In this document: positions 11,654 through 24,724 of the stretch, one piece after another
Layout: every line of letters starts with the position of its first letter
How positions within the stretch are numbered: the stretch's first letter is position 1
Source: an uncultured Spirochaetota bacterium
Lineage (GTDB): Bacteria > Spirochaetota > Spirochaetia > SZUA-6 > Fen-1364
Length of the DNA stretch: 64,000 bases
Assembly: GCA_963734545.1 (NCBI GenBank)
Contig: CAVTHO010000005.1
Span: forward strand, 134,886 to 198,885
Direction of reading: 5' to 3'
The notes under the pieces: generated by a model
The model's database searches: none
Seen by the model: the letters and a program-made list of their open reading frames with translations, nothing else
Told to the model about the DNA's origin: nothing
Position numbers and translations under genes: made by a program

Positions 11654-11749
11654 CCCCCTCCTCTCCTTTGTACCCCAATCTGTCGGGAGAGTCAAATCGA
11701 CTTTGCGCGGTTGTGAAATACGCCCGGAAAGGGTAAACTCTCGCCTGAC

Positions 11750-12205
11750 ATGAGGCGCGTCTGGCTCGCTATCATTGCACTGCTGTGTCTTGGCGCCGTG
11801 AACCTTCAGGCCCAGTATGGTCTCGTCCTCCACACCGCGGTGAGCGAAGACCGCCTGAGCGTGGGAGCGTCGATCCGCCTGCTCGGCGTTGCAGCCGGCA
11901 GCCTGCGGCCGGAAATCGGCGCGGAAGAAGCGCGGGCAACTCTCACGCGGCTTGGCATCAAGCTGCCCAGGGATTCCGATGACAGTCCCATCACCTTCGG
12001 CAACTTCGCCTTTCTGCTCTGCCAGCTCTTCGACCTTCGGGGCGGCGTGATGTACGGGTTGTTCCCGGGGCCCCGCGCCGCTTTCAATGAGCTTGTGGTC
12101 CGGGGCCTGCTGCCGGCACATGCCCGGCCGGGTGCCCCGATCAGCGGGCCGGACGCCCTGCTCGTGCTGCGCCGTTTCATTCAGCCCCGTGGAGAAAGCC
12201 AGTGA
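11750..12205 (+). CDS. Secreted hypothetical protein (151 aa)
   Basis: Signal peptide MRRVWLAIIALLCLGAVNLQAQ. Divergent from the coiled-coil gene. Its stop overlaps the next start by 4 nt. Confidence 0.6.
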   Translation: MRRVWLAIIALLCLGAVNLQAQYGLVLHTAVSEDRLSVGASIRLLGVAAGSLRPEIGAEEARATLTRLGIKLPRDSDDSPITFGNFAFLLCQLFDLRGGVMYGLFPGPRAAFNELVVRGLLPAHARPGAPISGPDALLVLRRFIQPRGESQ

Positions 12206-13482
12206 TGGCGCTCCGGAAGGTCCCGCGGCTGCAATCGAGATTCCTCATTCTGGTGCTCTTCGTCATTCCTTTGTTCGGCGCGCACGCGCAGTCGCCGGTG
12301 ACCTTTTCATGGAAGGCGGACCTGGCGACGGCAAACACGCTGAGCGATTTGGGTGACGGGCCGGCCGTGGACATGCTGGATTCGGCCTCCCTGGGCTTTG
12401 AGCTGGATCATGGACTCGGCCGCGGCATCATGAGCTATCGGCTGGGCGGCCAGATCCAGTATGCGCCCCAGAGGATAGCGGCAGGCGCGCCTGCGGTTTC
12501 CGCCCTCACGGGCTATCCGCTGGAATCAGGGCTGAGCTACGAGCTTCCGCCGCTGAACCTCCTCGGGCTGTGGTTTCGTGCCGGGCTCGGGCGTCTGGAC
12601 CTGGAGGAGCCCACGGGCCTGCTCCTCGACGACCCTGCCGCCGTGCACGAGAGCCAGCTTGTGGATGGTCTTCTCCTCGAGTTCCGGTATCACTGGTTCT
12701 ACGGGTCCCTGGGCGCCGGATATCTCGGCCTGCTCGACAGGCGGCTGAACAGGGTCCGATTCACGCCGCAGGACTTCATCGAGCTGGACGACGCATCGCA
12801 GTACTTCGCTCCGCCCCGGGGCCTGGCGGTGCTTCGGCTCGAAGCTGAAGATCTGTTCGCCGGTCAGAGCTTCGGGCTGTTCGGCATCGGCCAGAAGGAC
12901 TTTCGCGATACTGGGTCGAAGCTCGACAGCTGGTACGCGGGAACGGCGGTGCGCGGACCGATCGCCCTCGGTTTCCGCCATACCACGAGCATGGTCCTGG
13001 CGATAGTGGTGCCTTCTCCCGGCACGCCGGGTGCAGGGCTTCTCCTGTCCTCTCAGGTGGCCTACCGGCTGCCGGGGAATATTCTTCATGAAGCCTGGTT
13101 CTCCCTGCTCTGGGCGAGCAGCGACGGGGGAGGGCTTGCCGAATTCCCCGCGCTTGCCGGTCCCGCGGTGAGCACAGGCTTTCCCGTCCCTCTGAGCGAC
13201 ATTGTTCGCCTCGAGCTGGGCATCGACACCACCTTTGCAGTTCCTCCGGCCGTCACGCCGCTCGGCCTGGCGTTCACGAGCCAGCTTCTTCTCAAGCCGA
13301 GCGGGCAGGTGCCGCCGGGATTCTCGTTCAGGACGGCAGGCTCCTTTATGGGCACGGAGCTTGGGCTCACCGCCCGGTACGAGCCGATCCAGGGACTGCG
13401 CTTCGACGCGCGGGCCGGCACGCTCATCACCCTCTCCGGCCCGTTTGTCTCCGTGCGCCTGGAAGGCAGGGTGAGCCTATGA
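12202..13482 (+). CDS. Secreted hypothetical protein, possible outer-membrane beta-barrel
   Basis: 426-aa ORF. Signal LILVLFVIPLFGAHAQS. Alternating hydrophobic, G/Y/F-rich strands throughout. 4-nt overlaps with both neighbouring genes. Confidence 0.6.
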   Translation: MMALRKVPRLQSRFLILVLFVIPLFGAHAQSPVTFSWKADLATANTLSDLGDGPAVDMLDSASLGFELDHGLGRGIMSYRLGGQIQYAPQRIAAGAPAVSALTGYPLESGLSYELPPLNLLGLWFRAGLGRLDLEEPTGLLLDDPAAVHESQLVDGLLLEFRYHWFYGSLGAGYLGLLDRRLNRVRFTPQDFIELDDASQYFAPPRGLAVLRLEAEDLFAGQSFGLFGIGQKDFRDTGSKLDSWYAGTAVRGPIALGFRHTTSMVLAIVVPSPGTPGAGLLLSSQVAYRLPGNILHEAWFSLLWASSDGGGLAEFPALAGPAVSTGFPVPLSDIVRLELGIDTTFAVPPAVTPLGLAFTSQLLLKPSGQVPPGFSFRTAGSFMGTELGLTARYEPIQGLRFDARAGTLITLSGPFVSVRLEGRVSL

Positions 13483-14024
13483 GCACGTGTTTCAGGCTGC
13501 GGCATCCGGGCTGGATGCTGGTCCTCGCGCTCCTGGCGGGCGCCACGTCCTTGGTGGAGGGCCAGGCCCTCGAGGTGCAGCAGTCGAGCGGATTCGTCGA
13601 AACGCTTCTTCCGGACCTCGGTTGGCGCCAGGCGGTCCTCGGGCGGCAGCTGCCCCCCGACGCAGTAGTGACATCCTGGCTCGGTGCCAGCGCCCGGCTC
13701 ACTTATGGCGGGAGCGTGGTCACCCTCGGGCCGCTCAGCCATCTTCGGATTCTGTCCGTGGGGAAAGACCTCGTGAGGCTGTCCCTGGAGGCAGGAACCG
13801 TCACGGTGGAGTCCTCTACGCCGGCGTGCGAGATAGAGTTCCGCGGGCTGATGGTGCGGATGGAACAGGGCAATGTCACCCTGACCGACGGCGTGCTCAG
13901 CGTGAAGGCGGGCACCGCGTCGCTGCAGGGGGCCCAGGACAAGCCCCTCACGTTCGGCCCGGGAAGCACCTTCTCGCTTCTCACCCGGTCCACCGGTCCG
14001 GTTTTCAAAGGCGACTACCGATAG
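13479..14024 (+). CDS. Secreted FecR-domain-like protein
   Basis: 181-aa ORF with a signal peptide. Pattern SARLTYGGSVVTLGPLSHLRILSVG...LSLEAGTVTVES resembles FecR sensor domains. Confidence 0.55.
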   Translation: MSTCFRLRHPGWMLVLALLAGATSLVEGQALEVQQSSGFVETLLPDLGWRQAVLGRQLPPDAVVTSWLGASARLTYGGSVVTLGPLSHLRILSVGKDLVRLSLEAGTVTVESSTPACEIEFRGLMVRMEQGNVTLTDGVLSVKAGTASLQGAQDKPLTFGPGSTFSLLTRSTGPVFKGDYR

Positions 14025-14101: not shown

Positions 14102-14129
14102 TTGACAAATCCCTGCCATGGTATAAAAA
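14102..14129 (+). promoter_or_regulatory. Possible promoter of the 14.1-18.8 kb operon
   Basis: TTGACA (14102-14107), 16-nt spacer, TAAAAA (14124-14129). TATAAA at 14122 would leave only a 14-nt spacer. The call is weak because the predicted start would be almost leaderless for ATG 14138. Confidence 0.3.
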
Positions 14130-14137
14130 GGGATCTG

Positions 14138-14809
14138 ATGCCCGTCAAAAATCCGTTCCTCCTCTACCTGCGCTCACGGCTGAACTCCGTCCTCTCCATC
14201 TCGGCCGCGTCCCTGGTGCTGCTGTCACTTCTCTTCCTGAGGCCCCATGCGCTGGTTCCCATTTCCGTGATCCTTCTGGCGTACGTCGCTCTCACCTTCG
14301 CTCTCTTCTTTTCCCGCAGAGGGGCCCGGGAGGTTGTTGCCGAGAGTGAAGAGGACAGGCTGAAGAAGATCCGGCAGAAGATAGACGCTCTTGCAGAAAC
14401 CCGGGAGCGTGTTGCGGTCCTCAGGATCGGAGACCACCGCATGGCCAAAGCGATCGAGTACTTCCTCCAGGAGTCGGGCTCCTACCTGGAGAAGTGCCGG
14501 GAGCTCTCCCGCTACTCGCCTCTTGCCAACGAGCGCATCGAGCGTGTCCTGGAAATCTGCCAGGTTTTTCTGGGCGAGCGTGACGAGGCCGCCACTGCCA
14601 GGAGATACGACGTGTCCGCCGAGAGCGGTCTTCCCGCGCGCGACATGCCCGCTGAACCAGGCGGGGCGGCAGCGGACCCAGGGGAACAGCTCGCCAGGGA
14701 CATCACGGACTGCGCCGGGGTCATCAGGGAACGTATGACCGAGGACCTGCTCGGCCTGAGCGGAGAAGCCCGCCTCGCAATCATGAAAGAACTGGAAAAC
14801 AACAAATGA
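14138..14809 (+). CDS. Hypothetical membrane protein (two TM helices plus helical cytoplasmic domain)
   Basis: Track ORF 14102..14809. ATG 14138 follows AAGGGA. TM segments LSISAASLVLLSLLFL and ISVILLAYVALTFALFF. The stop overlaps the next ATG as ATGA. Confidence 0.65.
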   Translation: MPVKNPFLLYLRSRLNSVLSISAASLVLLSLLFLRPHALVPISVILLAYVALTFALFFSRRGAREVVAESEEDRLKKIRQKIDALAETRERVAVLRIGDHRMAKAIEYFLQESGSYLEKCRELSRYSPLANERIERVLEICQVFLGERDEAATARRYDVSAESGLPARDMPAEPGGAAADPGEQLARDITDCAGVIRERMTEDLLGLSGEARLAIMKELENNK

Positions 14810-16458
14810 AAAGAAGAGCTCTGATCGGCGTTCTCATTTTCTGCGCGGCCTCCTGGGCGGCATCCGGTCTCAGCGTCGTGCTGGAGAGCGTGGAGACGGA
14901 CGTGGTGGTCCGGCCGGACGGCAAGGCTGATTTCTTTGAAAGCCTGGCATGGCAGGCCACGGGCGGGCAGATGCACGGTTTCTATTTTGAGGGCGCTGCC
15001 GTGCGGCCCGTGTTCAACCTCGACCAGTGCTATGCCGACCTTGCCGGCAATGTGCGCGTCGGCCTGGCTATCCGGGACCTGGGCGGCGGCAGGTACGACG
15101 TGGTTCTGGCAGGCGGCCGCGGGTTCACGGGCGCCGCAATGTACTTTCTCGCCTATGGCGGGGACCTGGCCGGACCGAAGCTCATCGGCCTGACCAAATC
15201 CGCCGACTTCGGGGAGCTTTTCTATTTCGACTGGGCGCCCGAGCAGTGGGACCAGCCCCTGGATCACCGCACGATCAGGATCGAGCTCCCCATTCCCGTG
15301 AGCGGTCAGACAGTCGGGCAGGACGTGCTCACGCAGGCAGGATTCCGGACCGAGCCGTACGTGAATCAGCAGAACAGCATTGACGCTTTCGGCTCGAAAG
15401 GCGCGGACGGCAGGTACTACCTCACCCTGAGGTTCAATCAGCAGAACGTGCGCGCGAAGCAGGCGCAGAGACTCCAGTTTTACCTCAAGCGGTCCGCCGT
15501 ACCCATGCAGGAGGGGGTTCTCACGGAAAGCACCACGTCGGGAGGCACCGTCTCGACGACCGGAACGCAGCCTCTGGCGGAACCGACCACGACCGAACCC
15601 GTCCCCGCGGCCCCGCGGATGCAGGCCGGCCCTGTCGCAACGGCCGTGACGCTCGGCGTGCTCCTTGCCCTGGTCATCCTCCTGTACTGGCTCAAGGCCA
15701 GGGGATACGGCCGCACACTGGAAAAAGTGGAAGGCATCCGCTGGGCCGGGGACAACTGGATCCCGCCCAGGCTCTTCGCGGGCACCTATCAGGTCAAGGG
15801 CAAGATCGCCGAAGACCTGCACCCGGTGGAGGTCGCGCTCCTTCTGGAAATGCCGCTGCAGAAAGTGGTGGCCATCATGCTGGAAGGTCTCAAGCGCCAG
15901 GGCATCATCGAAGTGGTGAAGGAGGATCCGCTCGAGATAAGGATTCTCACCGCAGCGAAAGGCGGAAAGCGAGTACGAGGAGCTGTTCCTCCAGTCATTC
16001 GACACGCGGGGTCTGGTGCTCTCGGGCGTTCTTGCCGATTTCTTCGAAAAGGTGCTCGCAAAGCTCCAGGAGAAGATCTGGGACTGCGACAGCGACGCCA
16101 CCAGGGAATACTACAGAAAGAAGCTCGAACAGAGGGTGGAGACCGAGCAGGACCGGGTCCAACCCTACTACTGGTACTGGTCGTCGTACCGATGGATCTA
16201 CTGGAACACGGCGGTCTACTCGCAGGTGCACCTGCCGCCGGATTTCTCCGCGGGCTACCAGGCACTTCATGGCCTCCGCGTCCTGCTTCAAGGGATGCTT
16301 TCGCCCCGGCGCAGGCCACGACGGGCGGCGTCAACGCCTGCTACTCCGCGTGCCACAACGCCTGCCATTCGGCATGTCACCAGGCCTGCCACTCGGCATG
16401 CCATTCCGCCTGCCACTCGGCATGCCACTCGGCGTGCGTGTCGGGGGGCGCGCATTGA
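14806..16458 (+). CDS. DUF2207-like single-pass membrane protein with cytoplasmic C-terminal CXXX-repeat (Cys/His/Ser) tail (about three frame breaks in this assembly)
   Basis: Signal peptide, then an N-terminal domain with a DUF2207-like pattern (VETDVVVRPDGKADFFESLAWQATGGQMHGFYFEG, FYFDWAPEQWDQPLDHRTIRIELP). TM helix VATAVTLGVLLALVILLYWL followed by KARGYGR. Frame path by codon bias and sequence sense: frame 1 to about 15961, frame 2 (AESEYEELFLQSFDTRGLVLSGVLADFFEKV...YWYWSSYRWIYWNTAVYSQVHLPPDFSAGYQ) to about 16262, frame 0 (HFMASASCFKGCFRPGAGHD) to about 16325, then frame 1 (GGVNACYSACHNACHSACHQACHSACHSACHSACHSACVSGGAH, stop 16456-16458). Confidence 0.7.
   Translation: MKRRALIGVLIFCAASWAASGLSVVLESVETDVVVRPDGKADFFESLAWQATGGQMHGFYFEGAAVRPVFNLDQCYADLAGNVRVGLAIRDLGGGRYDVVLAGGRGFTGAAMYFLAYGGDLAGPKLIGLTKSADFGELFYFDWAPEQWDQPLDHRTIRIELPIPVSGQTVGQDVLTQAGFRTEPYVNQQNSIDAFGSKGADGRYYLTLRFNQQNVRAKQAQRLQFYLKRSAVPMQEGVLTESTTSGGTVSTTGTQPLAEPTTTEPVPAAPRMQAGPVATAVTLGVLLALVILLYWLKARGYGRTLEKVEGIRWAGDNWIPPRLFAGTYQVKGKIAEDLHPVEVALLLEMPLQKVVAIMLEGLKRQGIIEVVKEDPLEIRILTAAKGGKRVRGAVPPVIRHAGSGALGRSCRFLRKGARKAPGEDLGLRQRRHQGILQKEARTEGGDRAGPGPTLLLVLVVVPMDLLEHGGLLAGAPAAGFLRGLPGTSWPPRPASRDAFAPAQATTGGVNACYSACHNACHSACHQACHSACHSACHSACHSACVSGGAH
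16336..16443 (+). repeat. Nine tandem 12-nt units (24-nt super-period) encoding the (A-C-H/Y/V-S/N/Q) CXXX repeat
   Basis: Units: gcctgctactcc gcgtgccacaac gcctgccattcg gcatgtcaccag gcctgccactcg gcatgccattcc gcctgccactcg gcatgccactcg gcgtgcgtgtcg. GC3 strongly favours the Cys/His/Ser reading frame. Confidence 0.9.
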
Positions 16459-16530
16459 AAAGATCGGCAGGGCAGATACGGTCGCCGGGCCCGGGCATCG
16501 TCTCCGACATTCCGCGGTCCGCTCGCTGGG

Positions 16531-17948
16531 ATGGATCGACGAGTTTTTCCGGGAAGCCAGGGACCATATCTTTGCCCGCGAGGAGGACGGGGTCGTCATC
16601 CTGCCTCCCAACCAGGTGTACAAGGCAAACTCCACCGGCATCGCCATTGTCACGCACATGTGCGCCGGGGGGAAGGCGGCTTCGATCCCGGGGATCGCGC
16701 AGGAAGACCGCGCGCGGCAGGTCGCGGCCTTCGTTTCCGACATTCGCGCGCTCTACCTCGGCCAGCCCGCCGAAGGCGGCCGCGCGCCGTATGAAGATGT
16801 GCCCTACACTTTCCAGTACACGAGACTGCCGATCCTCGGCGAGATCGCCGTGACCTATCGATGCAACAATGCCTGTGTCTTCTGCTACGCGGGCTGCGGG
16901 ACGCAGGACACCGGGCTGCGGGACGCAGGACCCGGGCTGCGGGACCCCGAATACCGTCCACGGCGTCGGGTGCGCGGGCACGGTTCGAGCGGTGACCGGT
17001 GGCGACGCGCGGGAAATGAGCCTTGCGGAGATCGAGAAGGTCATCCACGTATTCAAGGACGATGCGAAGATCCCCTTCTTCTCATTCACGGGCGGGGAGC
17101 CGCTCCTGCGCGAGGACCTCGAGGACATGATCCGGCTTGCACGACGCGCGGGGCTGCAGGTGAATCTCATTACCAACGGCACGCGGGCGGACCGCCGCAG
17201 GGCGCGCAGCCTTTTCAAGGCAGGGCTTCGCACGGCGCAGGTGAGCGTGGAAAGCCTCGACCCGGAAACCCACGACCTTCTCACGGCGAGGCCGGGGTCC
17301 TTTCCGAAGACGCTGGAGGGCATTCGCTGTCTGCAGGCGGCGGGCATCTCGGTGCAGACGAACACCACAATGACCGCGGTCAATTCGCCCGACGCCCCGC
17401 GCATGCCGGCATTCCTGAAAAGCCTGGGAGTGACCAGGTTTGCCATGAATCTCTATCTGCCGGTGTGCGCGCCGCGCACCGGGTGCGGGGACCCCGGCCA
17501 TCCCCGGGTCGATGCGCTGTTCATTCCGTACACGCGCGCCGGGGCCATCATCGAGAGCGTGCGCATGGCCGCGCGGGCACAGAAGATGACGTTCTACTGG
17601 TACTCCCCCATCCCGCACTGCCACTACAACACGATTGCCCGCGGCCTTGGAAACAAGTCCTGCGCCGCAATGGACGGCCTCCTGTCCGTGTCCCCGACCG
17701 GAGACGTTCTTCCCTGCTCGTCCTTCCCTGAGCCGATGGGCAACCTGCTCTCGCAGGGCTTTCGCGAGATCTGGTTCTCTCCCCGGGCAGGATACTTCAA
17801 GAACAAGCGCTACGCGCCCGCCGAATGCGAAGGGTGCCCGAGCTTCACGGCCTGTCAGGCGGCCTGCCCCCTGTACTGGCGCTACGCGGGGACATCGGAG
17901 ATTCGCAATCGGGTGCCGATTGTCCAGGAGAATGTCGCATGGAAATGA
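16531..17948 (+). CDS. Radical SAM / SPASM-domain enzyme with PqqD-like (RRE-type) N-terminal domain (frame break at 16911-16915; start uncertain)
   Basis: N-terminal part lies in the frame of track ORF 16016 (IDEFFREARDHIFAREEDGVVILPPNQVYKANSTGIAIVTHMCAGGK...). CX3CX2C motif is CNNACVFC. The rest lies in track ORF 16869..17948 (FSFTGGEPLLRED, LITNGT). SPASM motif CX2CX5CX3C is CEGCPSFTACQAAC, with upstream Cys in GNKSCAAMDG..VLPCS. The only nearby ATG (16531) is one base out of frame. Confidence 0.75.
16890..16953 (+). repeat. Tandem 22/21/21-nt repeat encoding three GCGTQD(T/P)-type heptads just after the radical SAM Cys motif
   Basis: cgggctgcgggacgcaggacac (16890-16911), cgggctgcgggacgcaggacc (16912-16932), cgggctgcgggaccccgaatac (16933-). 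The 22-nt first unit breaks the frame. Confidence 0.85.
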
Positions 17949-18838
17949 AATTCAGCGTCACCCGGCTCGCGTTCCCCGCGCGCATGGTCGTGTTTGCAGG
18001 ATTCGCGGCGGGCGGGCTTGCCCTGCAGGTCCTGTTTCCCGGCGGGTTCGGCTTTCTCCCCGGTGTGCTGCTCATGGTGCCCGGGCTGGTCTTCATGGGC
18101 GCCAGGAATTTCAGGAACAAGCCGATGGATGTCGGCCAGGAAGATTGGCAGCCCGCTTCCGTGCGCGAGTTCGACCGGATCAAGAGCAACCTGCAGCTCA
18201 CTCGGGAGAAGCGCTACTCGGTGATCTACCGCACCGGGTTCGGGTGGTTCATCGCCGTGGTGCTCGCCGCGGCCGCGCTCGTCTTGGGGACGAGCGGCTT
18301 CCGTCTCGGCACCCTGGTGTGCGTGGATGCCCTGGTCCTCCTCATCCCCTTCCTGTTCACCGGCAACGTCTCGCTGTGGACCCCGCAGGAGCTCGCATTC
18401 CGCATGCGCGTATTCGAGCCCATCCTTTCAGCGGAACCCGCGGAGGGCGGCGAGATCATCATCACTCCTTACCTGAAGCTGGACAAGAACAGCACGGGAC
18501 AGCAGATCCCTGAAGACATTCGTCTGATGGTGGAGCCGCGCCGGAAGCCCGCCGACTTCCTCGGTGTGCAGCTCCAGGTTGCAGTGAACAAGGGCCCGAA
18601 CGGCAATGTGCCCTACATGTACGCCGTCTTCCTCTGCAAGGGAAAGGGCACGACCTACCAGGCGCTCGCCGCCGCGCGCTTCGGCGACTATGTGCACGAG
18701 CCGGGAGGAGACAAGGAGTACGGGTACATCGTCGTGCGTCAGGAGACCTCGGGCACCGGCTATGCCACCACGGACGCGGACGTGCGCGACCTGTACGACC
18801 TGGTGAAGAGGACGCTCCTCTCCCTGCCAAAGGCCTGA
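17939..18838 (+). CDS. Hypothetical membrane protein (about 4 TM helices plus C-terminal soluble domain), translationally coupled to the radical SAM gene
   Basis: ATG 17939 or 17945 inside track ORF 17825..18838. Overlaps the radical SAM stop as ATGGAAATGA. TM segments MVVFAGFAAGGLALQVLF, LPGVLLMVPGLVFMG, WFIAVVLAAAALVLG, LVCVDALVLLIPFLF. Confidence 0.65.
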   Translation: MEMKFSVTRLAFPARMVVFAGFAAGGLALQVLFPGGFGFLPGVLLMVPGLVFMGARNFRNKPMDVGQEDWQPASVREFDRIKSNLQLTREKRYSVIYRTGFGWFIAVVLAAAALVLGTSGFRLGTLVCVDALVLLIPFLFTGNVSLWTPQELAFRMRVFEPILSAEPAEGGEIIITPYLKLDKNSTGQQIPEDIRLMVEPRRKPADFLGVQLQVAVNKGPNGNVPYMYAVFLCKGKGTTYQALAAARFGDYVHEPGGDKEYGYIVVRQETSGTGYATTDADVRDLYDLVKRTLLSLPKA

Positions 18839-18851
18839 GGGCACAGACCTC

Positions 18852-19664
18852 TCACAGCCCGATAAGAGCTGCAGCCACGTAAGGGGCAATCCCCAGAATC
18901 GCCGCAAAGGCCTTGCGGCTGGGCTGGCTGGCCCGCGAATCCCACTCGAACAGGAGAGCGGCCAGCGCGAAGCTGAGCAGGGCGCCTGCGGCCAGAACGC
19001 AGATCGAGAGCACGGGAATCGGCTGGGCGGCGCCTCCCGTTCCGAGCGCGGCAAACACCTTCATGCCATGGGTGGCGGGCAGAAGGAGCGAGATCCGCTG
19101 CAGACCCGAGGGCAGCAGGGAGGACGGCACCATGAGGCCGCCGAGAATGATCGAGGGAATGTAGACGAACTGACCGACCAGAATCGACACGGTCGTGTTC
19201 CCGGCGGCCACGCCGACAAGCACACCGATGCCCGCATATGCCGCGTAGGAAAGGACCGCCGCCGCAATGAAGCCGGGGAGGGACGTCGGGAGGACCCCGC
19301 CAAAGAAGCGCGCGCCGGCAAGCGTGATGATGAGGGTGATCACTGCCATGTGGACCGCCGTTCCCATCACGGGGATGGCGAGAATCGACGCGGACGGCAC
19401 TCCGTTGATCCGGTAGCTCCTGAACACGCCTGCCTCCCGCGCGGTCACCAGCAGGCTGGGCAGGCTCAGGAGCGCCGCGCACATGAAGGCAAAGAGCACC
19501 ATGGCGGGTATCATCGTCTGCGTGAAGCCGGGGTTGACGGATGCCATCAACCCGCCGACCAGGACGAAGAACACCAGCGGGAAAAGGTAGAACATCAGCA
19601 GCTTGGACCTGTCCCTGACGCCGGTCTTGAAATCGTACGCGAAGTGATGGAGGAATGCCTTCAT
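18852..19664 (-). CDS. ABC-2 type transporter permease
   Basis: ATG 19664 (MKAFLHHFAYDFKTGVRDRSKLLMFYLFPLVFF...) inside track ORF 18852..19778. Six hydrophobic segments. Its ATG overlaps the ATPase stop as ATGA. Confidence 0.75.
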   Translation of the reverse strand: MKAFLHHFAYDFKTGVRDRSKLLMFYLFPLVFFVLVGGLMASVNPGFTQTMIPAMVLFAFMCAALLSLPSLLVTAREAGVFRSYRINGVPSASILAIPVMGTAVHMAVITLIITLAGARFFGGVLPTSLPGFIAAAVLSYAAYAGIGVLVGVAAGNTTVSILVGQFVYIPSIILGGLMVPSSLLPSGLQRISLLLPATHGMKVFAALGTGGAAQPIPVLSICVLAAGALLSFALAALLFEWDSRASQPSRKAFAAILGIAPYVAAALIGL

Positions 19665-20590
19665 CGCGCTGCTCCTTTCGTGCCCTGTGCCGAGGTGAGC
19701 TCGAGGAACCGTTCTTCCAGGTCGGTCGTTCCACGCGCAGGTCGACCAGGGGGTCGCCCGCCTGTTCGAGCCATGCAATGATTGCGCTCACCGCCTTTCC
19801 CGGCTTCTCGGAAGCGTACAGCGTGTATTCGTCGGTCTGACCCTTGTAGACGGCATCAGGAAAGTCGACGCGCCCCGACTGGAGACTGCGGCCCTCGGTG
19901 GAAACCGAAATACGGGTCATGCGGTTCCCCGCCGCCGTGAGCTGCCGGGGGCTGCCCATGGCCGCGATGTCACCCCGCAGCAGGATGGCGGCGCGGTCGG
20001 CGAGCTTTTCGGCCTCCGCCATGTCGTGCGTGGCGAGGATCACCGTGGTGCCCCTGGGCGCGAAGCTCGCCGATGAGGACGTGCAGGTCCGCGCGGGACT
20101 GCACGTCCAGGCCCGCCGTGGGCTCATCGAGAAAGAGCACCGCGGGATCGTGGGCAATCGCGATGGCCAGGGCGAGCCGTCGCTGCTGCCCGACGGAAAG
20201 CTTCACGTATTGGGCGCGCCGCTTTTCCGAGAGACCGAGCCTCTCGACCAGGTCCTGCCTGACGGGCACGCCGTGATAGCTCGAAAAGAAGCTCATCGCT
20301 TCGTCGACGGTCATCGCCGCGGGGAGCGCGGAGGTCTGCAGCTGCACGCCGATGATGTTGCGGAGCTTGCGCGGCTGCCTGTGCGGATCGATCCCCGCGA
20401 TCGAGAGGCTGCCGCCGTCCGGGTGGCGCAGGCCTTCCAGGCTTTCCAGCGTGCTGGTCTTGCCGGATCCGTTCGGACCCAGAAGGGCGAATATCTCCCC
20501 CTTGTTCACCTCGAAGCTGATCCCCTTGACCGCGATCGTGTCCGCGTAGCGCTTGACGAATCCCCGGACCGTCACCATTGCGTCACGCAC
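19661..20590 (-). CDS. ABC transporter ATP-binding protein (two compensating frame breaks in this assembly)
   Basis: Walker A GPNGSGKT, signature LSVGQQRR, Walker B VLFLDEPTAGLD, then TTVILATHDMAEAEKLADR in the frame of track ORF 18760..20157. It returns to the first frame for ..VERPT|LEERFLELTSAQGTKGAAR, stop at 19661. GTG 20590 has AGGGAG about 8 nt upstream. Confidence 0.8.
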
Positions 20591-24008: not shown

Positions 24009-24724
24009 ATGAACGAGCTGATCACGATCGTGGAGGATGAGGACGATATCCGCGCCCTGGTCAGCGCAGGATTGAAGAAGGAGCGCTTCCGGGTGCGGGA
24101 GTATGCGGACGGCAAGGGCTTCCTCTCCTCGCTGCGCGCGGAAAAGCCGGACCTCGTTGTCCTGGACGTGATGCTTCCCGACACGGACGGCTTTGCGATC
24201 TGCCGCGGCATGCGCGCCGACAGATCACTGGCGGCAATACCCGGTGATCATGCTCACCGCCCGGGCGGAGGAAGCGGACCGGGTGCTGGGCCTGGAGCTC
24301 GGCGCGGATGACTACGTCGTGAAGCCATTCTCTCCGAAGGAGCTGGCAGCACGGGTCAAGGCTGTCCTTCGCCGCGCGTCCCCGGAGACGGGCACGTCCC
24401 GGATCGAGGTGGCGGACGGCCTTCTCATCGACACGGACACCATGGAAGTCACCCTCCATGGCACGAAAGCTCGAGCTCACGCAGGCTGAGTTCCGCATTC
24501 TCCATCTCCTTGCAGCGCGCATCGGCTGGGTCTTCTCCCGGGAAAAGATACTCGATCACCTCTGGGGGAATGAGAAGAACGTGACCGACCGGTCGGTGGA
24601 CGTGCACGTGAAGCACCTGCGCGACAAGCTCGGTCCAGCGGGAAAGATGATCGTCAACATACGGGGGGTGGGATACAAGCTTGCCGCTCCGGGATCGGGG
24701 CAGCGCGCGGCGGAACGAAAATGA
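24009..24724 (+). CDS. phoB: Phosphate regulon response regulator PhoB-like (two frame breaks in this assembly)
   Basis: Three track ORFs (24009, 24193, 24458) concatenate into one OmpR-family protein. Order of segments: [31 protein letters not shown] | [34 protein letters not shown].. | [15 protein letters not shown]...[11 protein letters not shown]. Breaks at 24240-24244 and about 24460-24468. Sits immediately upstream of phoR-pst. Confidence 0.8.

Follow-up and report, generated by a model that had tools for sequence, protein, structure and literature searches.

Radical S-adenosylmethionine (SAM) enzymes with SPASM domains are known mainly as maturases of small secreted peptides, and to our knowledge proteins are the substrates of only a few SPASM enzymes, among them anSME and QhpD. 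In the freyrasin (ranthipeptide) system PapB/PapA, PapB installs six thioethers on repeated C-X3-D motifs. The known systems closest in kind to the one described here are the CXXX systems of NCBIfam, with the target families TIGR04117 (‘Cys-Xaa-Xaa-Xaa repeat radical SAM target protein’) and TIGR04118 (‘AC3_0185 family rSAM-modified Cys-rich RiPP’, where RiPP denotes a peptide that is ribosomally synthesized and afterwards modified post-translationally). These families and the accompanying maturase family were defined bioinformatically, and we found no experimental paper on them in the literature searched. Here we analyse a gene cassette in a 64 000-nucleotide stretch of DNA from an uncultured Spirochaetota bacterium (GenBank assembly GCA_963734545.1, contig CAVTHO010000005.1, positions 134 886 to 198 885 of the forward strand; hereafter the window), in which a DUF2207-type membrane protein, g2, ends in a Cys/His repeat and is encoded directly upstream of a radical SAM/SPASM enzyme, g3. 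Sequence comparisons make it probable that g3 covalently modifies the tail of g2. We would put at about even the chance that the pair represents an undescribed class of protein modification, in which g3 would act serially on the eight to nine A-C-H-S units to yield a membrane-tethered module that is crosslinked, binds metal or a cofactor, or both.

An initial annotation of the window had described four tightly coupled genes, and all four were found on the + strand at 14138–18838. Its proposal that a radical SAM enzyme modifies a tail still tethered to its protein is supported by the contiguity of tail and membrane protein, the conserved pairing of the two genes and the architecture of the enzyme, from which we infer the modification itself. 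The elements of g2 and g3 on which this reading depends are as follows:

14806–16458, + strand: g2, DUF2207-type membrane protein, 549 amino acids after correction of the reading frame
15643–15693, + strand: transmembrane (TM) helix of g2, from TM prediction
16073–16090, + strand: KIWDCD motif in the cytoplasmic domain of g2, from cross-clade alignment A6
16284–16298, + strand: CFKGC, the first CX3C pair, within a conserved pre-repeat segment
16336–16455, + strand: repeat tail of g2, nine 4-residue units, the last of them (ACHS)4 ACVS, and then the conserved C-terminus GGAH, with the stop codon at 16456–16458
16455–17948, + strand: g3, radical SAM/SPASM enzyme, 496 amino acids after correction of the reading frame
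16517–16760, + strand: N-terminal domain of g3 resembling a RiPP recognition element (RRE) of the PqqD type, from weak profile matches, AlphaFold topology and alignment with SuiB
16862–16885, + strand: CNNACVFC, the CX3CX2C [4Fe-4S] cluster motif of g3, invariant in 88 sequences from both clades
17616–17867, + strand: SPASM region of g3, with seven conserved Cys arranged C-X13-C-X17-C ... C-X2-C-X5-C-X3-C

As in the CXXX systems, a Cys occupies every fourth residue of a C-terminal repeat and the gene lies beside that of a radical SAM/SPASM enzyme, which here it also overlaps. Positions 53–97 of the TIGR04117 profile, its C-terminal part, align to the g2 tail with scores far below the cutoff of 50 (7–16 bits overall, 7–11 bits for the tail), TIGR04118 gives 6.9 bits against a cutoff of 35, and a fragment that ends like the g2 tail has a weak precomputed match to PF27846 (‘tSAM_targ_Cxxx_rpt’). 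The CXXX targets have approximately 46–98 amino acids, whereas here the repeat terminates a membrane protein of 500–600 amino acids, and a dedicated 4-TM partner protein, g4, is a further difference. The locus thus agrees with a CXXX system in Cys spacing and gene adjacency, but its target is not a small protein and its enzyme does not fall in the curated maturase family. Like PapB, g3 is of the RRE-radical SAM-SPASM type and presumably acts in series on short tandem Cys units, and a weak match connects its SPASM region with the PapB family NF047865 (E 1.8e-5, 24 bits against 340). Unlike the PapB substrate, the A-C-H-S units have no Asp or Glu acceptor, and the substrate would be the tail of a membrane protein rather than a leader-core peptide.

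Precedent for SPASM enzymes that modify a Cys in a folded or full-size protein comes from anSME and from QhpD, which acts on the QhpC subunit, and anSME is among the structural matches to g3. However, anSME has no RRE and requires a C/S-x-P/A-x-R motif, which the g2 tail lacks, and the sulfatase-maturase family, raised earlier as the counter-case, is ruled out for g3 (TIGR03942, 23.9 bits against 349). The match to QhpD (TIGR03906) is likewise low, at 16.4 bits against a cutoff of 453, and the substrates of both enzymes are soluble or exported enzymes, in contrast to the cytoplasmic membrane-protein tail proposed here. The best full-length structural match to g3 is SuiB (PDB 5V1Q/5V1T), the RRE-radical SAM-SPASM maturase of streptide (TM-score approximately 0.55), in an alignment that includes the N-terminal domain. 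Sequence identity to SuiB is 12–16% and the profile match is weak (E 8e-6); SuiB joins Lys to Trp through a C-C bond in a free leader-core peptide. PapB, QhpD, anSME and SuiB are functional or structural analogies for g3, not its own families. With DUF2207 (PF09972), g2 shares the external β-sandwich but neither the cytoplasmic domain nor the tail.

The distribution of the cassette was analysed in two scans. An alignment of the radical SAM enzyme was searched against one genome per species (GTDB representatives), where the best 80 of 167 relatives were kept, nearly all of them from Spirochaetota metagenome-assembled genomes (MAGs); a scan of metagenome contigs gave at least 403 relatives, of which 80 loci were kept. 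Pooling both scans yielded 159 tail-bearing loci. Wherever upstream sequence was available, at approximately 160 loci from two clades, the gene immediately upstream of that of the radical SAM enzyme is g2, and g4 lies downstream at most loci of both clades. The survey of gene neighbourhoods called for in the initial annotation therefore bears out the association of the enzyme with a tail-bearing DUF2207-type protein, and does so in both clades. The second, more divergent clade comprises the 80 metagenome loci (L087–L166; for example L093, 3672–7487), which come from environmental metagenomes, include low-GC members and keep the order g2-g3-g4 without g1, the two-TM protein that precedes g2 in the window. 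Identities in this clade are 24–35% for g2, 36–49% for g3 and 23–30% for g4, and its tail reads SDACHSACYVHTACHD(ACHS)6ACVSGGAH. Over 120 homologues of g3 have 58–99% identity to it. In public databases these proteins go by no other names than ‘DUF2207 domain-containing protein’, ‘hypothetical protein’ or ‘radical SAM protein’, and no description of a tailed g2/radical SAM system was found in the literature searched. Judged from these comparisons, the cassette is widespread and strongly constrained.

The constraint is concentrated in the tail. The count of 11 Cys given in the initial annotation holds, with nine at exact 4-residue spacing and the CFKGC pair upstream of them; Tandem Repeats Finder detects the underlying 12-nucleotide repeat at 16335–16437. 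The cross-clade alignment of g2 averages 36% identity per column, and of its 43 invariant columns 29 belong to the last 57 residues. Across 59 species-level loci the Ala, Cys and His of the repeat are all invariant while synonymous codons vary freely, the repeat Ser being encoded by both the TCN and the AGY codon families. Because the codons vary and the amino acids do not, selection acts on the tail peptide and not on the DNA repeat, which also rules out a DNA-level repeat or low-complexity artefact. The unit number is fixed: 69 of the 77 tails derived from genomes have nine units, and 69 of the 80 metagenome loci have eight. The most variable position follows the His and is occupied by S, D, N, Q or H; in the first unit the Cys is followed by Tyr or His, and the last unit is always ACVS, then GG[A/S/G/P]H. 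A Gly-rich spacer (..TTGGVNA..) is conserved ahead of the repeat in clade 1 and has shrunk to 4–5 residues in clade 2. Upstream of this lies the pre-repeat segment, with the consensus F-M-x-S-x-x-C-[FY]-x-G-C-[FY]-x-P, in which C493, G496, C497 and P500 are invariant in alignment A4, and C493 and C497 also in the cross-clade alignment A6. The conservation of this segment makes it a plausible candidate for an internal, ‘leader-like’ recognition sequence at which the RRE-like domain of g3 could dock.

The repeat is carried by long proteins. Among 127 complete tail-carrying open reading frames (ORFs) from the 159 tail-bearing loci (median 572 codons), 122 have at least 450 codons, and the five shorter ones all appear to be frameshifted. 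A search for free-standing tail peptides returned four short matches and found no convincing example. One of them (P0154) was set aside as it lies on a low-coverage 17-kb contig (coverage 0.49) among short unannotated ORFs and has an interrupted repeat, and another (P0155) is a C-terminal fragment of g2 that ends before the repeat. The third (P0153), on a 578-bp contig, is either a fragment or a stand-alone protein. The fourth (P0156; 102 amino acids on a 728-bp contig) seems to stand alone, but is most likely a fragment or a mis-call, because every relative on a long contig is a g2-like protein of 500–600 amino acids.

Five parts can be distinguished in g2: a signal peptide, an external β-sandwich, one TM helix, a cytoplasmic domain of approximately 200 amino acids and the Cys/His repeat tail. 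The gathering cutoff of PF09972 (DUF2207; 24.4 bits) is passed by the stitched window protein (26.9 bits) and by the N-terminal domain of its orthologue in L001 (28.9 bits), the intact syntenic locus of a Spirochaetota MAG to which the window was aligned for frame analysis (88% nucleotide identity). The AlphaFold model of the g2 homologue P0010, which was built from a shallower alignment than our 64-sequence g2 set, shows a confident β-sandwich (residues 30–232) followed by one TM helix, then a confident cytoplasmic winged helix with further helices (residues 343–443). The predicted local distance difference test (pLDDT) score of its tail is below 50, which suggests that the tail is flexible. 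Foldseek searches with the g2 model gave only generic β-sandwiches (the M1 aminopeptidase N-domain and ribophorin I) that are uninformative on function, and neither Pfam nor NCBIfam has a match for the cytoplasmic domain or the tail. Since hydropathy predicts a signal peptide and a single TM helix with no others, the tail should be cytoplasmic, in the same compartment as the radical SAM enzyme. The cytoplasmic domain also includes the WDCD motif (16079–16090), whose W and both D residues are invariant in both clades, with the Cys nearly so; these supply three of just 14 invariant g2 columns outside the tail. As the initial annotation had assumed, the tail is contiguous with the membrane protein: intact homologues read straight through, and no stop codon separates the two in the corrected sequence of the window.

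Both the CX3CX2C motif and the SPASM motif CEGCPSFTACQAAC (17826–17867) reported earlier for g3 were confirmed. The enzyme scores well above the cutoffs for PF04055 (Radical_SAM; 98.9 bits against 29.5, E 4.7e-28), PF13186 (SPASM; 43.2 bits against 21.5, E 4.9e-11) and TIGR04085 (SPASM; 43.5 bits against 27). In the 88 sequences from both clades, seven Cys are kept in the SPASM half, and the final, eighth Cys of the canonical motif is not conserved, so one auxiliary cluster may have a non-Cys ligand or an open site, which would be compatible with binding of a substrate thiolate. A profile search against NCBIfam thus upheld the domain assignment, but not the membership of a CXXX-repeat maturase, SCIFF, anSME or QhpD family that the initial annotation had considered, as no curated cutoff was reached. 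The best score was 103 bits for AhbD, whose own cutoff is 500 (the listed families have cutoffs of 180 to 725 bits), and the peptide-maturase families scored 15–80 bits against cutoffs of 265–650; these include the SCIFF maturase TIGR03974 (15.1 bits against 425) and the ACGX system enzyme TIGR04340 (80 bits against 400). The CXXX-repeat maturase model is absent from the best 25 of 59 families for full-length g3, where the lowest listed score is 52 bits, and it is also missing from the list for the SPASM half, which comprises 24 families. A reading as a defence system was dropped because PADLOC gave only generic, viperin-like matches to the radical SAM core. Just after the CX3CX2C motif, a 21/22-nucleotide tandem repeat (16890–16960, + strand) encodes a Gly/Cys loop, GCGTQD[TP] twice and then GCGTP. 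Homologues of g3 differ widely in how long this loop is and in its sequence, its pLDDT is below 50, and one of the 21/22-nucleotide units holds a frameshifting extra base.

Ahead of the radical SAM core, g3 has an N-terminal extension of approximately 110 amino acids that AlphaFold models as a helix, three strands and further helices, with mean pLDDT values of 75–94 over 10-residue blocks. PF05402 (PqqD) matches this region in 16 of 20 family members (best E 0.0016, all below the 23.4-bit cutoff), the lasso PqqD model in 14 and PQQ_PqqD in nine. The SuiB structures are the only PDB entries that align with g3 over near its full length (466–485 columns). An earlier assignment of a PqqD-type domain is favoured by the modelled fold and by weak but consistent PqqD matches, but no member passes a curated cutoff and no solved RRE was matched. 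Given these matches and the agreement of the modelled topology and the SuiB layout, the domain looks like an RRE, and we label it RRE-like.

The junction of the two genes also links enzyme and tail. The initial annotation had placed the start of g3 at an ATG (16531), 72 nucleotides downstream of g2; this is incorrect, as that ATG is out of frame and the conserved protein begins upstream. Comparison of the loci shows that the junction is usually CATTGA, in which a TTG start overlaps the TGA stop, and for this reason g3 of the window most likely starts with the TTG at 16455, in overlap with the stop codon of g2 at 16456–16458. Alternative junctions, CACTGATG or CACTAGGCATG, have an ATG start, and the choice of His codon at the junction co-varies with the type of g3 start.

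These features suggest a scheme in which the three-gene core g2, g3 and g4, joined by g1 in Spirochaetota, would form a membrane complex with the tail of g2 as the substrate of g3. The orientation of g2, with the β-sandwich outside and the C-terminal domain and tail in the cytoplasm, is predicted because g2 has a signal peptide, only one TM helix and, after the latter, a stretch rich in Lys and Arg. Translation of g3 would be coupled to that of g2 through the overlapping stop and start codons. Its RRE-like domain could then dock on the pre-repeat segment FMxSxxCFxGCFxP as an internal leader, and each of the eight to nine units might be modified in turn by 5'-deoxyadenosyl radical chemistry with the help of the auxiliary clusters. 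We propose that the tail is modified while still attached to g2 because an enzyme with the architecture of a peptide maturase is translationally coupled to a flexible, hyper-conserved Cys/His repeat, with no alternative peptide nearby and no conserved protease or exporter. By analogy with PapB and its CX3D motifs, the best guess for the product is a set of intra-unit crosslinks, with a thioether from the Cys sulfur to a neighbouring residue, although thioether formation specifically is a tentative and rather doubtful proposal. Alternatively, His- or Tyr-centred cyclophane-type links could form over three residues on H-x-A, an option that would fit the alternation of Tyr and His in unit 1, a middle position that varies and an Ala that does not. 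The product would stay on g2 as a rigid and/or metal-binding Cys/His module that acts with g4.

Several observations weigh against a modified tail. A tail so rich in Cys and His could bind metal without any modification, and it offers no obvious acceptor half for the hairpin crosslinks of classical sactipeptide type. The top NCBIfam scores of g3 belong to enzymes of cofactors and small molecules (AhbD, NirJ2 and MoaA, 86–103 bits) and its first-ranked Foldseek match is BlsE, all generic; no individual sequence brings the RRE signal up to a curated threshold, and a search of the N-terminal domain profile against PDB sequences found no solved RRE. The window copy of the cassette is, moreover, frameshifted. 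The matches to non-peptide enzymes, BlsE included, which head the sequence matches in NCBIfam and PDB, and the sub-threshold RRE signal speak at the same time for an unmodified tail that binds metal or an Fe-S cluster, comparable to the Cys/His tails of metallochaperones, with g3 acting on another substrate at the membrane, be it a small molecule, a lipid or a tetrapyrrole, and g2 and g4 providing a scaffold, a sensor or a source of metal. The composition of the tail, with nine Cys and eight or nine His among 40 residues, is indeed classic for metal ligands. We nevertheless regard this as unlikely: such tails usually vary in length and sequence, whereas this one has a fixed number of units and an Ala no less invariant than its Cys and His. 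The stop/start overlap ties g3 specifically to the tail-coding end of g2, the additional PqqD-like domain, evident from both sequence signals and fold, is typical of peptide-modifying enzymes, and the matches to AhbD, MoaA and BlsE span only the generic core and lie far under the family cutoffs. The tetrapyrrole enzymes bring up a further idea, that the C-X3-C-H motifs are sites of covalent haem or tetrapyrrole attachment, with a radical SAM enzyme like AhbD or NirJ adding the group in the cytoplasm. Up to four C-x-x-x-C-H motifs emerge when the units are taken in pairs, and the highest NCBIfam scores are those of the tetrapyrrole-modifying AhbD, NirJ2, NirJ and AhbC, but these amount to 75–103 bits against cutoffs of 500–650 and again reflect the generic core. 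As the last Cys is always followed by Val and the first pair in clade 2 by Tyr, CX3CH is not consistently kept; with an RRE-like domain on g3 and no haem-biosynthesis genes conserved nearby, haem attachment is scarcely credible.

Two other explanations concern the fate of the tail and the state of the genes. If the modified tail were cleaved from g2 and set free as a small product rich in Cys and His, it would be a RiPP core and the 500-residue g2 a giant leader or scaffold. The architecture is formally that of a leader followed by a core at the extreme C-terminus, the conserved Gly-rich spacer of clade 1 would suit it, and an ABC-2 transporter adjoins the cassette in the window and in L001. 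However, the flanks of the loci compared, which differ in L002, L004 and L093, contain no conserved protease or exporter, and the spacer of clade 2 is only 4–5 residues long. Conservation of the external domain, TM helix and WDCD motif argues that g2 has a function of its own, and we judge release of the tail to be very unlikely. The frameshifts, on the other hand, raise the question of whether the window cassette is a decaying pseudogene pair. The alignment to L001 revealed six uncompensated single-base insertions (at approximately 15954, 16264, 16298, 16510, 16514 and 16911), crowded into approximately 1 kb (15954–16911), while g1, g4 and the initial 1.1 kb of g2 are clean; the deposited gene call (P0050) is a truncated ORF of 359 amino acids. 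In the deposited sequence, g2 and g3 are each split between reading frames. Yet all six are +1 insertions, and unrelated genes in the window are affected too: relative to their L001 orthologues, the ATPase of an ABC transporter (19664–20590, − strand) is frameshifted and a response regulator (24009–24721, + strand) is split over three frames. Similar errors occur in the same GC-rich repeat region of other long-contig assemblies (P0003, P0021 and P0031). Removing the bases at approximately 15954, 16264 and 16298 brings g2, deposited over three frames, into a single ORF of 549 amino acids with 91% identity to the intact L001 orthologue, and removing those at approximately 16510, 16514 and 16911 restores a g3 of 496 amino acids, approximately 88% identical to that of L001; both are free of stop codons and retain all motifs. 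Decay of the pair is thus distinctly improbable, and because other window genes and several long-contig assemblies of the family are frameshifted in the same way, we provisionally read the breaks as assembly noise. The window also carries one additional in-frame 21-nucleotide repeat unit compared with L001.

Should g3 indeed modify the attached tail, the cassette would be a conserved case in which the substrate of a radical SAM/SPASM enzyme is the tail of a membrane protein. A RiPP pathway would then have been turned to a new purpose, the construction of a structural or redox element on a protein of full size, and the Cys/His chemistry involved might be new. The Ala/Cys/His repeat is fixed while the carrier proteins are only approximately 30% identical, which suggests that the Cys/His units undergo a precise and probably novel chemistry and that the function is important enough to have been retained in two divergent clades. 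The cassette would also open a first route to the function of one branch of the large DUF2207 family, and it could shed light on the CXXX-repeat families of NCBIfam.

The reading frames of this region have left traces in earlier sequence interpretation. The initial annotation had stitched the frames of g2 together with a junction sequence that proved wrong, the corrected frame giving different residues there. Frame 2 is open from 16016 to 17731 (within the region 15962–17731), through the tail repeat and into g3. Public gene calls (P0003, P0008, P0021 and P0031) include out-of-frame chimeras, for example a 937-amino acid ‘radical SAM protein’ that joins g2 and g3, and many radical SAM gene calls have spurious N-terminal extensions such as MPLGVPLGVRVG, the tail repeat in the wrong frame.

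The two other genes of the cassette encode membrane proteins:

14138–14809, + strand: g1, 223 amino acids; the ATG start at 14138 is backed by the orthologues in L001–L004
17939–18838, + strand: g4, 299 amino acids, with 2+2 TM helices

The overlaps described earlier were both confirmed, as an ATGA at 14806–14809 between g1 and g2 and as 10 nucleotides at 17939–17948 between g3 and g4. The two TM helices claimed for g1 lie at its N-terminus (residues 15–33 and 40–58) and are followed by a cytoplasmic helical part; it has no Pfam or NCBIfam match. It is restricted to the Spirochaetota clade, being present upstream of g2 in most clade 1 loci and in none of clade 2. The description of g4 as a 4-TM protein is likewise correct, with the addition of a soluble C-terminal domain. 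No match to g4 was found in Pfam, NCBIfam or PADLOC, and its family is small and dedicated, with 363 cluster representatives among 1.84 billion. Scans for promoters, terminators and Rfam families over 13–20 kb found nothing.

As the flanking genes differ between loci, the cassette is, on this comparison, self-contained. In the window, three overlapping genes (approximately 160, 426 and 181 amino acids) lie directly upstream of g1 at 11726–14024 on the + strand, the first with a hydrophobic N-terminus resembling a signal peptide. They are absent beside the cassette in L002, L004 and L093 and syntenic in L001, and are probably unrelated neighbours.

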